Source of the DNA: a virus
Taxonomy: Duplodnaviria > Heunggongvirae > Uroviricota > Caudoviricetes
DNA length: 22,636 nucleotides
Virus record (IMG/VR): IMGVR_UViG_2740892230_000001
Location: 1-22,636 of that record
Strand: one strand, 5' to 3'
Part shown: positions 16,317 through 21,215 of the stretch, in pieces
Numbering within the stretch: the first letter of the stretch is position 1
Layout of the letters: every line of letters begins with the position of its first letter
Position numbers and translations under genes: made by a program
Notes under the pieces: generated by a model
The model's database searches: none
What the model was told of the DNA's origin: nothing
Seen by the model: the letters and a program-made list of their open reading frames with translations, nothing else

Positions 16317-16609
16317 TCCTGTTCACTGGCCTCTTTGGCCATCTTCAAATACTGTTCAGGGCAATGAGCCATAACGCGCTGAAACAGTTCCAGCGCCAGA
16401 TTGCGTTGCCCCTCATTAAATGCCATTGCCATAGCATCCATCGGAGAGATAGCGGAAAACACCCGGCCTTTCTCCAGCACAGACCAGACAACGCGACGCC
16501 CCTGTTCACTGCTCATGACAAAGCGAATGTCATCAATTTCACGCTGTGCCATGTCACGTTGCTTACGGGCGTTTTCTTCTTTCAGTTGATCGTCTTCGTA
16601 ATCTGTCAT
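16313..16609 (-). CDS. Hypothetical 98-aa protein between the portal and scaffold genes
   Basis: Track ORF with 4-nt overlaps at both ends (translational coupling). Confidence 0.5.
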   Translation of the reverse strand: MTDYEDDQLKEENARKQRDMAQREIDDIRFVMSSEQGRRVVWSVLEKGRVFSAISPMDAMAMAFNEGQRNLALELFQRVMAHCPEQYLKMAKEASEQE

Positions 16610-18285
16610 TGTGATTGCCCACCCTGACCACTAACTGCATTCGCCATAGCTGACAAAACACTCGGATCCGAAGTTTTAGCTTCGCTTAGCGTCTTGGCAC
16701 CCTGTGCCGCCGCCATCCCCATCGCCATCATTTGTTGCTGCTGTTGCTGCTGTGCCCGTTGCTGGCGAGCCTGATCAACCTGTTCCTGCGGAACAATGAC
16801 GGTTGGAGACACTCCGGACATATCAGCGAATGCATCGATCGCCTGATCAACGTTGAGTTTGTCGAGAGCTTCTGGTTTCGCTTGCGCAAGTTGACCAATG
16901 AAGTTAACCGTGGACGCCAGACTGGACAGGCCGATAGACTTCTGCGCCTGAGCCATGACGGAAATGTATTCGACCTTCAGGGGCATGCCTTCCATCGCGT
17001 CAGGCGGTGGCGGCAGCATGTTTTTACGCACCATCATCGAGAAAGCGCGGTCAATGAGAGGATTAAGACATTCGTCGTTCAGACGCTCCAGAACCGGCCC
17101 CAACATCAGAAGTTTTTCTTCTTTCATTTCGATCACCGCTTCAACAGGCATCGAGCGGGTATTGATGTTCTGCAACATCATGAACAGATCGACAAAGTAG
17201 GCGCTGTTAATGATTTGACGAGTGTCCTGAATGTCTGCTACCAGATCTGCTGTACTGGGGTTAACCAGATAAGCAGGCCTGAAACCATCCTGACCAGTAA
17301 TCTGATCGATATACGTGATGTCGCCAGGAAGAAGGGAGGCGCGCTGATTCTTGAGGGAAGTCGGAGCAACCATCGGCGGATTGGTGGCTTTATCAATCAA
17401 CTGCGACTTGCGCTTCTGAAGAAGCTGCAATGCCTTAACAGGTCCAAGCGCCAGCATACCCGGGCATGATGATCCATAAACATCTTCGCCGTTAACTTCC
17501 CAGCGCGGAGCCATAATTGGAAACTCATCGAATCCGGACTCACGCAACAACTTGTCGTTATCGCCGCCAACCTCGTAATAAACCGATTTGAATGGCTTGT
17601 TCTTGCTATCCAGCTTCGATGTATCGCGGTCAATGTTCGGGTAAACCGAATGCATCACCTCAATCCACTTCTCGTAGGTGCCACTTTCCCACATGCTTTT
17701 TACGGATTCGCTGACGTTATTTAGCCCGAACTCCTGAACAAGCTGACGAACAGTCATAGAGAACTTGCGAAAACAGATGTCCACACTGCCACGAGGTGAG
17801 TTAGCCAAGTAGTAACTACCTATCGGGAATGGCATTGTGCGAATGATGTCCTCGTCATCCTCCAGCACCGCCATTGCACCAGTGCTGTATGTGCCGAGGC
17901 TTCCGTATAACTGCGGAAGAGACTGGTAGAGATTCGACTTATTGAACATATCATTCATGCGGTTCTGCACCGCCTCAAGCCACAACTTAACAGGGCCATA
18001 ATCCATCATTTCAGGATCTGGCGTAGCCAGGCGAAACCACGGACGCGCGGGGCTTGTGATGCCTGACATCATGCCGCTGGCGAGAGTGCGCGCCGCCATA
18101 GTCCCGGTCGAATCAATAATGCGTGTATTGCGTCGATCGTTACGGTTGACCTCAGAAGTCAGAAAGCGGGAACCACGCGGGTTGATGTAATCACTCAACT
18201 CGCGCCAGTGCGGCTCGAACGACTGACGCTCGCTTTCAAGTTGTGCGAACTGTTTGTTCAATCGCTCTTTAGTTGTTTCCGCCAT
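16606..18285 (-). CDS. Portal (head-to-tail connector) protein, 559 aa, with a poly-Gln C-terminal tail
   Basis: Size and position after the terminase genes. C-terminus QQRAQQQQQQQMMAMGMAAAQG resembles the Gln/Met-rich tail of T7 gp8. GGAG SD. Confidence 0.7.
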   Translation of the reverse strand: MAETTKERLNKQFAQLESERQSFEPHWRELSDYINPRGSRFLTSEVNRNDRRNTRIIDSTGTMAARTLASGMMSGITSPARPWFRLATPDPEMMDYGPVKLWLEAVQNRMNDMFNKSNLYQSLPQLYGSLGTYSTGAMAVLEDDEDIIRTMPFPIGSYYLANSPRGSVDICFRKFSMTVRQLVQEFGLNNVSESVKSMWESGTYEKWIEVMHSVYPNIDRDTSKLDSKNKPFKSVYYEVGGDNDKLLRESGFDEFPIMAPRWEVNGEDVYGSSCPGMLALGPVKALQLLQKRKSQLIDKATNPPMVAPTSLKNQRASLLPGDITYIDQITGQDGFRPAYLVNPSTADLVADIQDTRQIINSAYFVDLFMMLQNINTRSMPVEAVIEMKEEKLLMLGPVLERLNDECLNPLIDRAFSMMVRKNMLPPPPDAMEGMPLKVEYISVMAQAQKSIGLSSLASTVNFIGQLAQAKPEALDKLNVDQAIDAFADMSGVSPTVIVPQEQVDQARQQRAQQQQQQQMMAMGMAAAQGAKTLSEAKTSDPSVLSAMANAVSGQGGQSQ

Positions 18286-18299
18286 TTCAATGACTCCGG

Positions 18300-18506
18300 T
18301 TACTGACCAAGCAGCGTTTTACCGCTGGTATTAGCGGTTGATGTGTCACCCTGAGAACCGGTAAGCAGCGTAGAACTACGACCAGCAGCAGCGCGACGGC
18401 GACGTGTTTCTTCGTCGCGGGCATCAACAACGGCGGCATCCTGCTCCTGTGGTGCTGCCTGAACTTCTGGTGTTGCAGGCACTGATGGTGAGCTACCCAT
18501 GCACAT
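18300..18506 (-). CDS. Hypothetical 68-aa low-complexity protein upstream of the portal gene
   Basis: Shares a 12-nt initiation region (CGGAGTCATTGA then ATG) with the portal gene: tcaatgactccg at 18508-18519 and 18288-18299. Confidence 0.35.
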   Translation of the reverse strand: MCMGSSPSVPATPEVQAAPQEQDAAVVDARDEETRRRRAAAGRSSTLLTGSQGDTSTANTSGKTLLGQ

Positions 18507-18933
18507 ATCAATGACTCCGTACGCAATTAAATTATTACCAATTTAACCACATATGATTTATTTATCGTAGATAGTTGACATTTAACGCACAAATTATTAC
18601 CTTTCAGGTAAGCAAAGGGTTCATTCCGGTTATTAACCTGACTGGCTTGTCGTTAAATTGAACAGGTGGAGTGAGCTTTTATTTTGAGCAGTACGGCGTA
18701 TGGCACATGCGCCGATAGCGGTCTGGATACGTTTAAGGGGCACCCTCCCTTGCTCGGGCAAACGAACCAGGTAGCCGGAATGTGCAAGTCGAGCGGTTTT
18801 ATTCCGCGCACGGGGATTCACCATCCCGGCGATTCGGTGTGACGCCTCGGAAGAGACGAGGGTACAACGATGAGAGCATTTATGGAGCCGCGACAAAGTG
18901 TGGCGCCTTAACAGGCTAAGTGCTCTCAGCGTT

Positions 18934-19010
18934 GTGGCATTAGCTCAGTTGGACAGAGCAACCGCCTTCTAAGCGGTTGGTCGCAGGTTCGAATCCTGCA
19001 TGCCACGCCA
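18934..19010 (+). tRNA. tRNA-Arg, anticodon UCU, 77 nt with encoded CCA
   Basis: Hand-folded cloverleaf: acceptor GTGGCAT/ATGCCAC, D-stem GCTC/GAGC, anticodon stem ACCGC/GCGGT with loop CTTCTAA, T-arm GCAGG-TTCGAAT-CCTGC, discriminator G. Similar to, but clearly diverged from, E. coli argU as recalled. Confidence 0.9.
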
Positions 19011-19053
19011 GAATCACGCCTAAGGACCGTGATGCCAGAAGTTCCAGGGGCTT

Positions 19054-19096
19054 GGCGGTGATGGTTTCCCTTGAAGGACTATCACCGCCCTTTTTA
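19054..19096 (+). terminator. Rho-independent terminator downstream of the tRNA
   Basis: GGCGGTGAT ... ATCACCGCC 9-bp stem followed by CTTTTT. Confidence 0.5.
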
Positions 19097-19173
19097 CAGC
19101 AGGACGCCATTGCGATGACTTCATGCTGTAAACCAGTACAGCCACGGAAGGCATAACTCATTGCTTCCAGTTC

Positions 19174-19199
19174 GCCCGGTTCGCCGGGCATTTTTTTTG
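19174..19199 (+). terminator. Second Rho-independent terminator downstream of the tRNA
   Basis: GCCCGG-TTCG-CCGGGC followed by ATTTTTTTT. Confidence 0.6.
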
Positions 19200-19306
19200 G
19201 CGTGATACGTCACAATTATGATATCGATGCAGATTACGACATACATGAAAAACATGTCATAGTATCTCCTGAGGTTAATCTCGATTCAAAAAGAGGATGA
19301 TTTATA

Positions 19307-19654
19307 ATGATTAAAATCAATAACGTACGTGGTGCTAGCGTTAGCGTCAACGGAGAAGACTTCACTGGTCATCATATTACGATTAACAATGGAAAAGTGA
19401 TCGTTGATGGTGTCGAAAAAAATAGCAATCTTGACGGACAGATTAACGTAACAATTAATGGAAGCGTGGAAGGTGTTGAGATTGAAAATGGATCAGTGAC
19501 TGTAAGCGGTGATGCACATTATGTGAAAACTATGTCTGGTGATGTCCATTGTTCCAATGTATTGGGAAATGTAAACACCATGTCTGGAGATGTAATCTGC
19601 GAAACTGTTGGTGGAAACGCCAGCACAATGTCTGGAAATATTATCAAGAAATAA
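19307..19654 (+). CDS. Beta-rich repeat protein, 115 aa, bactofilin-like pattern, unknown function (moron)
   Basis: AAGAGGA SD; AT-rich; own terminator. Repeated G-x-V/I beta-strand motifs and TMSGDV/TMSGNI repeats (INVTINGSVEGVEIENGSVTVSGD...). Confidence 0.55.
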   Translation: MIKINNVRGASVSVNGEDFTGHHITINNGKVIVDGVEKNSNLDGQINVTINGSVEGVEIENGSVTVSGDAHYVKTMSGDVHCSNVLGNVNTMSGDVICETVGGNASTMSGNIIKK

Positions 19655-19666
19655 TTATTTAAAAAT

Positions 19667-19697
19667 AAAGCCCGCCAAATGCGCGGGCTTTATTTTA
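19667..19697. terminator. Bidirectional Rho-independent terminator between the convergent 115-aa ORF and the large terminase gene
   Basis: AAAGCCCGC-caaatg-GCGGGCTTT flanked by A-run and T-run. Confidence 0.6.
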
Positions 19698-19739
19698 TCC
19701 TCATCAGAGGATATCAACGACATTATCCCCACCAGCGGA

Positions 19740-21215
19740 TTAAGCATAAGGGTCATAATCCGTTATGGCCCTTCCCTGCTGGCTTTGCTGTCCTGGTATA
19801 TTTATGCGTTTCGAGACCGGGAAAGCAAACGTCAGCAGTAGCGCATCGCCTTTACCCGGAGAACGCCCAAGCCGCTCCTTGATATCTTCCTTCGGTTCGA
19901 TAACGATTTTACCGTCCACACGAACTTTGTACTCTGCCGCCGACAGGTCGTCTGCAGTTTCCTGGTCATCCAGCATGCCGCCCAGCCTCAGCCATGTCTT
20001 ACATGAGTTGAACATCTCCCCGCGCTTGTTAAGCATCTGCGGGTCAGTGGACGCACCGCCGAACGGAACAAGTTGCCATGTACGTCCCCAGCCATCACCG
20101 ATTGACTTCAAACCGGTTCCGTAACCGAAGTCGATGAACACCGCGTCAGCCTGATACTGGTCTTCAAAGTCAGCGATACGCTTCGCCATAATCAGATCGT
20201 CGGTAGTCTTGTTGCCAGTCCACAGCACCTTACTGTGTAGCCCCTGCCGCAGGTATATCACCGCGTCATCAACGCCTGAATATGCTGGGTCAACACCGAT
20301 TATCACCGGAGCATGTGCAACCTGCGCAGCGGTGACCACCCGTTTCATTGCCTCGTCAGTAAGGCCGGTAGGGATAAACTGCAATTCAGATGCATCAGGG
20401 AATATGCCGCGCACACGGATTTTAACGAAGTCGCTGTCTTCCCCGTAGTCATCAACCCATTTCTGCAACTGCTGTTTGTTAGTGCCTTCCACCGTCCGGC
20501 TGTCAATCTGCGCAGTTTTCCAGCGGTGTTTATATTTGCGGAAACATTCGCGGAAACGCCCGGTGTTACGCGTCGGGTTTCCGAACGCCACCCAGATAAT
20601 CTCAGTGTCTTCGTCCGTAAGCGCACCCTCTGCTACCTCCCACACCAGATCGGCAATGTTCGACGCTTCATCGAATACCACGATGATGCGTTTGCGCTCG
20701 TTGTGTAGTCCGGCGAATGCCTCAGTGTTGTGCTCAGACCAGGGGATTGCGTCAGCTCGCCACCGCTTGTCGTGCCCAGGGTCATTGCTGTACATCGCGG
20801 TAGCTGTACAGGTAAACCAGTCTTTCGTGATAGCAAGGTTTGACCACTTGATAATTTCCGGCCAGGTCTTCGTTCGTAGCTGGTTGTCGGTGTTGGCGGT
20901 CACCACGACCTTACAATCCTCGCAAGTGGACATGCCCCAGTTGATCAGCATTGAGATGAATGCGGATTTACCAATGCCGTGACCCGAAGCACGTGCCAGC
21001 ATAAGCGGCTGATAGCGCGTCTCTGGATTCTGCAGGTGATCACGTATCTCTCGGAACGCATCAGCCTGCCACTTACGTGGACCGGTGGCATGTGCCAGTT
21101 CAGTCCCCTCTTCCCCCCAAGGGAACGCATAGAGGGCATAGCCAAGCGGATCGTGAGTGAACCCTGCAATATCCTCGATTAACTGCTCTTCAGGAGATAA
21201 CGCTGTATCTGTCAC
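19740..21215 (-). CDS. Terminase large subunit, 491 aa
   Basis: Walker A-like LARASGHGIGKS, Walker B IIVVFDEAS, nuclease-domain motif VIIGVDPAYSG. GTG start overlaps the terS stop (GTGA). Confidence 0.85.
   Translation of the reverse strand: MTDTALSPEEQLIEDIAGFTHDPLGYALYAFPWGEEGTELAHATGPRKWQADAFREIRDHLQNPETRYQPLMLARASGHGIGKSAFISMLINWGMSTCEDCKVVVTANTDNQLRTKTWPEIIKWSNLAITKDWFTCTATAMYSNDPGHDKRWRADAIPWSEHNTEAFAGLHNERKRIIVVFDEASNIADLVWEVAEGALTDEDTEIIWVAFGNPTRNTGRFRECFRKYKHRWKTAQIDSRTVEGTNKQQLQKWVDDYGEDSDFVKIRVRGIFPDASELQFIPTGLTDEAMKRVVTAAQVAHAPVIIGVDPAYSGVDDAVIYLRQGLHSKVLWTGNKTTDDLIMAKRIADFEDQYQADAVFIDFGYGTGLKSIGDGWGRTWQLVPFGGASTDPQMLNKRGEMFNSCKTWLRLGGMLDDQETADDLSAAEYKVRVDGKIVIEPKEDIKERLGRSPGKGDALLLTFAFPVSKRINIPGQQSQQGRAITDYDPYA

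Follow-up and report, generated by a model that had tools for sequence, protein, structure and literature searches.

The open reading frame (ORF) at 19307..19654 on the + strand of the Caudoviricetes record IMGVR_UViG_2740892230_000001 encodes a 115-amino-acid (aa) protein, which we read as a minimal Toastrack-like beta-solenoid and not as a bactofilin. The whole stretch of DNA that was analysed (22,636 nucleotides (nt), positions 1 to 22,636 of this IMG/VR record) is called the window. The protein belongs to a very large and uncharacterised family, the genes of which travel singly as cargo of phages (virulent as well as temperate), conjugative plasmids and integrated elements. Judged from the alignment with sister prophages, the slot that holds its gene, between a tRNA-Arg gene and the large terminase gene, is a cargo-exchange hotspot and not a site of simple insertion. 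The position and the neighbours of the gene point weakly to a counter-defence role. The ORF itself is no discovery, being already annotated and belonging to an unnamed PHROG; what is new is the placement of its product as a Toastrack-like mini-solenoid and a pan-mobile-element cargo, encoded in an exchange slot with anti-defence alleles.

Positions 19200-19740 of the window are 100% identical to Escherichia phage TL-2011b, an epsilon15-like temperate podovirus whose source was an enterohaemorrhagic Escherichia coli (EHEC) O103:H25 outbreak strain and whose close relatives are placed in the genus Uetakevirus. The ORF is intact, starts with ATG, and its product is 100% identical to gp23 of TL-2011b (NC_019445 F365_gp23), which is labelled 'hypothetical protein'.

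The protein (11.9 kDa, pI 5.1, net charge only -5) has no evident predicted membrane segment and reads as soluble. A preliminary description of this DNA had pointed out three TMSGDV/TMSGNI repeats, and these are indeed found as TMSGDV at residues 75-80 and 91-96 and TMSGNI at residues 107-112, with a spacing of exactly 16 residues. The family alignment shows invariant Gly, Asp and Ser residues together with the consensus T-x-S-G-D-[VI]-x-C three times, the positions between them varying freely. Since the repeats are the most conserved feature across a family of thousands, the ORF is not a chance reading frame, and the invariance of the repeat positions amid freely varying ones suggests that the conserved residues are structural (turns and core) and that the surface evolves fast. 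In the AlphaFold model (predicted local distance difference test (pLDDT) score 84.9, with no segment of pLDDT<50) strands run from residue 2 to residue 114. The fold shown by this model is a right-handed beta-solenoid, the predicted C-terminal half of which consists of three 16-residue rungs built on the T-x-S-G-D-[VI]-x-C motif; the C-terminal rung has no obvious cap at its end. The beta-helix of the bactofilin-like protein proposed in the preliminary description is thus predicted, while its likeness to bactofilins extends to the fold class only.

In the structure comparison table, the Ca2+-dependent antifreeze domain 3p4g scored 8.3, 'putative adhesin' structures of the DUF4097/DUF2807 type (3lyc, 3jx8, 3pet and 3ljy) 7.3-5.7, MinC C-terminal domains 6.8-5.8, autotransporter passengers about 6-7, and the bactofilins 6ria and 2n3d 5.1 (ranks 47 and 50). 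Foldseek retrieved nothing significant from the PDB (best E 0.67), which argues that no solved structure is a close relative. The domain 3p4g (MpAFP RIV) is part of an extracellular adhesin and has Ca2+-binding rungs of 19 residues, whereas the rungs of the present protein are of 16 residues and there is no sequence-level relationship between the two; the likeness is probably generic to solenoids. Among the BFVD predicted structures, phage members of the family match the model at TM 0.8-0.94, and a phage protein annotated as 'Bactofilin' is a mid-level match (E 1e-5, TMq 0.53). Three giant-virus proteins in BFVD, A0A3G5AK49, A0A1V0SLU0 and A0A7D3R166 (from Sylvanvirus, Klosneuvirus and Fadolivirus), were also matched by Foldseek with E values from 1e-8 to 3e-6 and 23-32% identity, and because of these matches relatives may exist outside bacterial mobile elements.

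DUF4097 ('Toastrack') is the only recurrent named sequence signal in the family. It was detected, weakly, in 14 of 40 members (best E 0.0016); the best case, the relative P0131, scores 19.3 bits against a cut-off of 22.9, none of these matches reaches the Pfam gathering score, and the window protein itself has no Toastrack profile match in Pfam at E<=10. Toastrack domains (DUF4097; DUF2154/DUF2807; YvlB, LiaG, the LiaF C-terminus, VraT) are usually fused to PspC/LiaF membrane domains and have been proposed to act as a docking platform (PMC11237479). The present protein, by comparison, is half the size or less, stands alone without a PspC/LiaF membrane-domain fusion, and is mobile-element cargo rather than part of a stress-response operon. 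As to the bactofilin (DUF583) assignment, the Pfam scan of the protein at E<=10 gave no such match and returned only Pilin (E 0.9), and no NCBIfam model matches the protein. Bactofilin (PF04519/DUF583) is not among the best 25 of the 34 families matched by the 40 relatives, and the comparison of the family profile with PDB sequences yielded no bactofilin at E<=10. The bactofilins of known structure (BacA, 2n3d, and the Thermus protein, 6ria) have no sequence-profile relationship to the protein and differ in rung motif and period; they also have disordered flanking tails and often a membrane-targeting sequence, and the 115-aa protein has neither. By sequence profile, the protein stays below the thresholds for membership in either of the two named solenoid families, Toastrack and bactofilin.

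The ORF product was assigned, with E 7e-37, to phrog_3163, which is of unknown function. Relatives numbered 1,106 in a word-indexed search, and a full hidden Markov model (HMM) scan of 1.84 billion representatives gave 4,028 at E<=1e-3, counted as representatives at 50% identity, and 1,665 at E<=1e-10. Nearly all members are 105-150 aa long and almost always stand-alone: the only fusions among the best 150 representatives are unannotatable extensions and one apparent membrane anchor. In one distant member an N-terminal stretch looks, by eye, like two hydrophobic helices. In a curated phage collection 181 records hold a family member, virulent phages being the majority; they include KVP40-like vibriophages, Aeromonas T4-like phages, Klebsiella/Proteus Mydovirus, Bacillus Bastillevirinae, Acinetobacter AM24-like phages, and jumbo phages of Erwinia, Serratia, Cronobacter and Yersinia. 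Plasmid records with a family member also number 181, 110 of which are conjugative, IncI2 plasmids among them. Two records look misannotated: the homologue WP_000844302 of the IncI2 plasmid pTA147-2 (L101 5965-6339) bears the names 'tail-associated lysozyme' (so in RefSeq) or 'phage tail protein', and in Klebsiella phage K18PH07C1 (L095 3501-3851) a 'tail fiber protein' coding sequence (CDS) is called antisense across the family gene.

In the window the gene is part of a cassette with the following features:

19198..19700, + strand: exchangeable cargo cassette consisting of leader, ORF and terminator (alignment with sister Uetakevirus prophages)
19198..19306, + strand: cargo-specific AT-rich leader (similarity to three sister loci ends exactly after the T-run at 19197)
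19236-19241 (ACGACA), 19255-19256 (TG) and 19258-19263 (CATAGT), + strand: parts of a candidate promoter (custom scan)
19292..19297, + strand: Shine-Dalgarno sequence AGAGGA (direct sequence reading)
19307..19654, + strand: CDS of the predicted 115-aa beta-solenoid protein, stop codon included (ORF list, PHROG 3163, AlphaFold model)
19662..19696, both strands: putative bidirectional intrinsic-terminator hairpin with a GC stem between an A-run and a U-run (fold energies, cargo-specific stem)

Most of what the preliminary description had said about the gene as a unit agrees with the measurements. The Shine-Dalgarno sequence called strong is a good site, of which the GAGG core lies 10 nt 5' of the ATG, a spacing that is slightly long. 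The distinctly lower GC is seen in the ORF (0.388) and in the whole cassette (0.378) in comparison with the flanking large terminase (19740..21215, - strand; 0.539) and portal genes (16606..18285, - strand; 0.515), both of which are oriented opposite to the ORF, as had been stated. The terminator attributed to the gene corresponds to the hairpin at 19662-19696, which folds with -20.7 kcal/mol on the + strand (z -6.1) and -21.2 kcal/mol on the - strand (z -4.8), none of 200 shuffles folding as well. A simple terminator scan did not pick it up, the fold-energy test did; the strong fold on each strand, together with the A-run and U-run flanks, suggests that it terminates transcription both ways. 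Late transcription from the terminase towards the portal and head genes must cross this hairpin of -21 kcal/mol with its U-run on the late strand, which implies antitermination or a downstream late promoter. A stock promoter scan found no + strand promoter for the ORF. A looser custom scan of the leader gave a moderate candidate of the extended -10 type (ACGACA-16-TGtCATAGT, 19236-19263), overlapped by a perfect inverted repeat, ACATG-N5-CATGT, at 19243-19257; the leader promoter is a candidate the function of which we infer from sequence.

Three sister loci (E. coli PF9285, APEC O1 and phage PAS61) were aligned with the window. Near-identity to it extends as far as the T-run at 19197 and resumes at about 19690, the sequence between these points being unrelated; the stem of the cassette terminator, too, is unlike that of the sister-phage hairpin at the same place. 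In the relatives examined the slot is never empty, its cargo being exchanged:

E. coli PF9285 prophage: 168-aa protein with a PF11195 Tad2-like domain (E 1e-23)
APEC O1 prophage: PF13876 Phage_gp49_66 protein
Phage PAS61: 140-aa protein related to the Tad2-like protein in the N-terminal domain only
E. coli OkiPb01690 prophage: 282-aa protein with no significant Pfam match (best E 0.0099)
Slot coordinates in the sister loci: L010 3558-3980, L011 3424-3930, L012 3424-3804, L102 3448-4296

The TL-2011b version, recognised by a place that covers 80% or more of the region 18286-19739, is present in only 11 of 5,426 complete E. coli genomes. Two hairpins precede the slot, and in the sister phages only about 11 nt separate the T-run of the second from the start of the cargo ORF. 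This leaves no room for a promoter, so transcription of the sister cargo genes must come from upstream. The cargo of TL-2011b is accompanied by an AT-rich leader of 110 nt and a terminator, both belonging to it.

The genomic contexts of the family were surveyed in 88 loci (80 IMG/VR loci and exact protein look-ups), which reduce to 37 non-redundant family clusters. No conserved partner gene or operon was found among them: the best neighbour family occurs in only 6 of the 37 loci, which suggests that the protein works alone or with host factors. At most loci the gene is co-directional inside arrays of small ORFs. The Pfam matches in the 288 neighbours (within 4 genes on either side) include integrases, DNA methyltransferases (orphan methylases among them), RecT, repressors, dUTPase, exonuclease, Tad2-like proteins and one ART-PolyVal giant protein, a profile which, as far as domain matches tell, is that of early or accessory regions. 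Thus, the vibriophage gene KVP40.0139 lies in a small-ORF array between a DNA methyltransferase and rIIA/rIIB. In Acinetobacter prophages the family gene is the second after the S24 repressor, on the strand of the recombination gene RecT, which is the position of immediate-early left-operon genes. In a Shewanella prophage three methylases are followed by the family gene and then by xis/int, in an Enterobacter prophage the gene lies in the head module between the protease/scaffold and capsid genes with an intergenic gap on each side, and in a Fusobacterium integrated element it is located upstream of, and adjoining, topoisomerase III.

We tentatively propose, at appreciably less than even odds, that the protein has a role in counter-defence, acting early or at entry by attaching to a host protein, most likely part of a defence system, and blocking it. 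It would be made early after the element enters the cell, or be carried in with it; its flat beta-sheet faces would bind and block the host protein, the most likely target being a component of anti-phage or anti-plasmid defence. In TL-2011b the host RNA polymerase would probably transcribe the gene, starting at the candidate promoter of the leader or reading through from the upstream tRNA island. The proposal draws on the lack of a conserved partner gene, on the early or accessory positions of the family and its presence in virulent phages and on plasmids, and on the company the gene keeps. Tad2 is described in a bioRxiv preprint (10.1101/2023.05.01.538930) as a DUF2829 protein that counteracts Thoeris. 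In the TL-2011b lineage a Tad2-like gene (PF11195, E 1e-23) is an allele of the family gene, filling the slot in its place in sister prophages, and in three more independent lineages (L037, L078/L084/L086 and L089) a family member has a Tad2-like gene at a distance of no more than about 1.5 kb. Like the present protein, Tad2/DUF2829 (PF11195) is encoded by a small stand-alone accessory phage gene, found in the same slot in sister prophages; the two show no relationship in sequence or, to the extent tested, in fold. The activity of Tad2 is the sequestration of a signalling nucleotide, and there is no sign of a ligand pocket in the protein studied here.

The Tad2-like query matches 370 places in 2.3 Gb of phage records, from which about 0.07 occurrences would be expected in the 438 kb examined, as opposed to the three lineages found (rough Poisson P about 6e-5); this enrichment speaks for the proposal. 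Several points weigh against it. The enrichment estimate is crude, two databases and two search methods being mixed in it. The co-localisation with Tad2-like genes is suggestive only, and it characterizes an accessory or counter-defence neighbourhood, not a function, as such regions hold unrelated genes too. Blocking by DNA mimicry is unlikely, given that the protein is only mildly acidic (pI about 5, net charge only -5). In the IncI2 plasmid the distance between the gene and the presumed origin of transfer (oriT) is about 6 kb, and the gene points towards oriT, unlike typical leading-region genes. The product of gp133 of Yersinia phage fHe-Yen8-01 (L093 3501-3839), which is 42% identical, is annotated as 'particle associated protein'. 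The TL-2011b gene, antisense inside a structural module and with its own terminator, fits a prophage-expressed moron too, and the literature yielded no paper with experimental data on any family member, nor one on solenoid anti-defence proteins.

This last fit brings up a classical moron expressed from the prophage, that is, a superinfection-exclusion, defence or lysogenic-conversion factor benefiting the lysogen, an explanation to which we give a small share of the probability. Low GC, a bidirectional terminator of its own, the antisense orientation to the late operon and the absence from sister phages agree with it, as do the possible promoter overlapping the inverted repeat and the location of the gene beside the repressor or the integrase in several prophages. 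No PADLOC defence model matched, however (0 families at E<=1), and the same-slot allele belongs to an anti-defence family, not to a defence family. Moreover, phage members occur mainly in obligately lytic phages and many others are on plasmids, largely conjugative ones, which makes a role confined to lysogens unlikely and weakens the suggestion of the preliminary description that the protein is a lysogenic-conversion or defence factor. Its term 'moron' describes the different filling between conserved flanks, the deviant GC and the terminator well; an own promoter is not established, the candidate being moderate. Morons of the Hendrix type (lambda bor/lom) resemble the gene in being additional genes of deviant composition that are set between conserved neighbours and have a terminator of their own. 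Here, by contrast, the slot exchanges cargo and is never empty in the relatives examined, the separate promoter is only a candidate, and the family is common in virulent phages and plasmids. To a virion-associated protein, which would either decorate the particle as a minor component or be packaged inside it and ejected along with the DNA, and which could coexist with counter-defence, we assign a similarly low probability. The annotations of fHe-Yen8-01 gp133, in a block with a particle-associated toxin, and of the family member gp233 of Bacillus phage Emiliahah ('structural protein') speak for it, together with the location inside the head module in TL-2011b and the Enterobacter prophage and the ART-PolyVal giant protein that adjoins another member. 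These annotations are as deposited, and the literature yielded no supporting paper for them, nor a publication behind the 'particle associated' label of fHe-Yen8-01. Besides, most members examined belong to small-ORF arrays of the early type, and others are carried by plasmids, which do not form virions; the sister Uetakeviruses make virions without the gene; and the TL-2011b gene is antisense to the late operon. The block of fHe-Yen8-01 gp133 contains a particle-associated ADP-ribosyltransferase toxin that exceeds 2,000 aa and is adjoined by tail fibre and terminase genes.

Less probable still is a bactofilin-like polymer, an idea that goes back to the preliminary description, in which uncapped solenoids would join at their ends to form filaments and thereby change the architecture of the host cell or organise the replication or assembly of the phage. 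The right-handed beta-solenoid fold, the C-terminal rung with no obvious cap, the 'Bactofilin' phage protein in BFVD, and the presence of the family in jumbo phages are in line with such a polymer. The best single-sequence match in the PDB is also a bactofilin (6ria), though at E 0.29, and the profile comparisons described above separate the protein from this family. The least likely of the alternatives, with a very low probability, is a soluble Toastrack decoy, an anchor-less platform domain that would titrate partners of Psp/Lia-type envelope-stress systems during infection or plasmid entry. Every Toastrack match is below the Pfam threshold, PspC or LiaI-LiaF domains and stress regulators are absent from the top families among the 288 neighbours, no PspC, LiaF or two-component genes lie nearby, and no envelope-stress link appears in any context. 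The probability left by the counter-defence proposal and these four alternatives goes to something not yet considered.

A wider form of the counter-defence proposal, which we put forward as a speculative possibility and consider rather unlikely as a whole, is that the TxSGD-repeat mini-solenoid defines a new pan-mobile-element family for counter-defence or host takeover, with more than 4,000 clusters at 50% identity across virulent and temperate phages, IncI2 and other conjugative plasmids and integrated elements, with structural relatives in giant viruses, and with direct binding that would neutralise a widespread host factor, and that the tRNA-linked slot is a compact anti-defence exchange locus, possibly driven by the conserved upstream RNA. 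If the counter-defence proposal is right, few uncharacterised accessory families of mobile elements would be as widely distributed as this one, and the host factor that it targets would matter to phages and plasmids alike. Members include those of clinically relevant IncI2 plasmids and of phages considered for therapy. Irrespective of function, the analysis corrects the 'bactofilin' label and the database names 'tail-associated lysozyme' and 'tail fiber protein', defines a cargo-exchange slot of epsilon15-like prophages, where further anti-defence genes could be sought, and highlights an unannotated structured RNA common to P1, lambdoid and epsilon15-like phages.

This RNA heads a + strand island upstream of the slot, which comprises the following features:

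18575..18603, + strand: candidate sigma-70 promoter TTGACA-17-TACCTT for the island (custom scan, consensus match only)
18696..18880, + strand: conserved structured RNA-like element of about 185 nt at the head of the island (conservation and consensus fold)
18934..19010, + strand: tRNA-Arg, anticodon UCU (ARAGORN; Rfam tRNA 73 bits; annotated in RefSeq prophages)
19054..19089, + strand: terminator-like hairpin 1 between tRNA and cargo (-22.8 kcal/mol)
19174..19189, + strand: terminator-like hairpin 2 with a U8 run at the left border of the cargo slot (-12.7 kcal/mol)

The tRNA-Arg(UCU) gene is on the same strand as the ORF and is conserved upstream of the cargo slot. A functional tie between the two through codon use was considered and rejected, as the ORF holds one Arg codon, CGT. 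TL-2011b gp24 (18940..19191, - strand; 83 aa, 'hypothetical protein') runs antisense over the tRNA-Arg and both hairpins and is probably a spurious gene call, since the RefSeq annotations of sister prophages omit it.

The RNA element, unannotated, lies about 430 bases upstream of the ORF and just upstream of the tRNA-Arg. Copies that are 81-84% identical make up much of the matches found in 1,096 of 5,426 E. coli genomes, and the element occurs in 83 phage records. In lambdoid phages (mEp460, Stx2c phages) copies of 72-84% identity lie directly 3' of a cI-like repressor, and further copies are found in P1/P7/D6/SJ46 (between trnI and ban), in a Klebsiella Uetakevirus and in a Stenotrophomonas phage. 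No Rfam 15 family matches the element. Its RNAalifold consensus, drawn from 5 copies only, contains 34 pairs, 6 of which have compensatory double changes, and there are long invariant loops, e.g. GGUAGCCGGAAUGUGCAAG. The element follows a promoter-like site and precedes terminator-like hairpins and promoter-less cargo genes, which suggests a role in read-through; it may be a cis-acting RNA affecting read-through or antitermination, or another phage non-coding RNA. The HK022 put RNA is about 70 nt long with two stems (PMC9378689). Identity of the element with put was rejected because it spans at least 165 nt as opposed to about 70 nt, and a functional analogy to put is speculative. In the Stenotrophomonas phage BUCT708 (L108 1631-1750) an RprA-like Rfam match, which is sub-threshold (50 bits, the gathering score being 70), directly follows the element.
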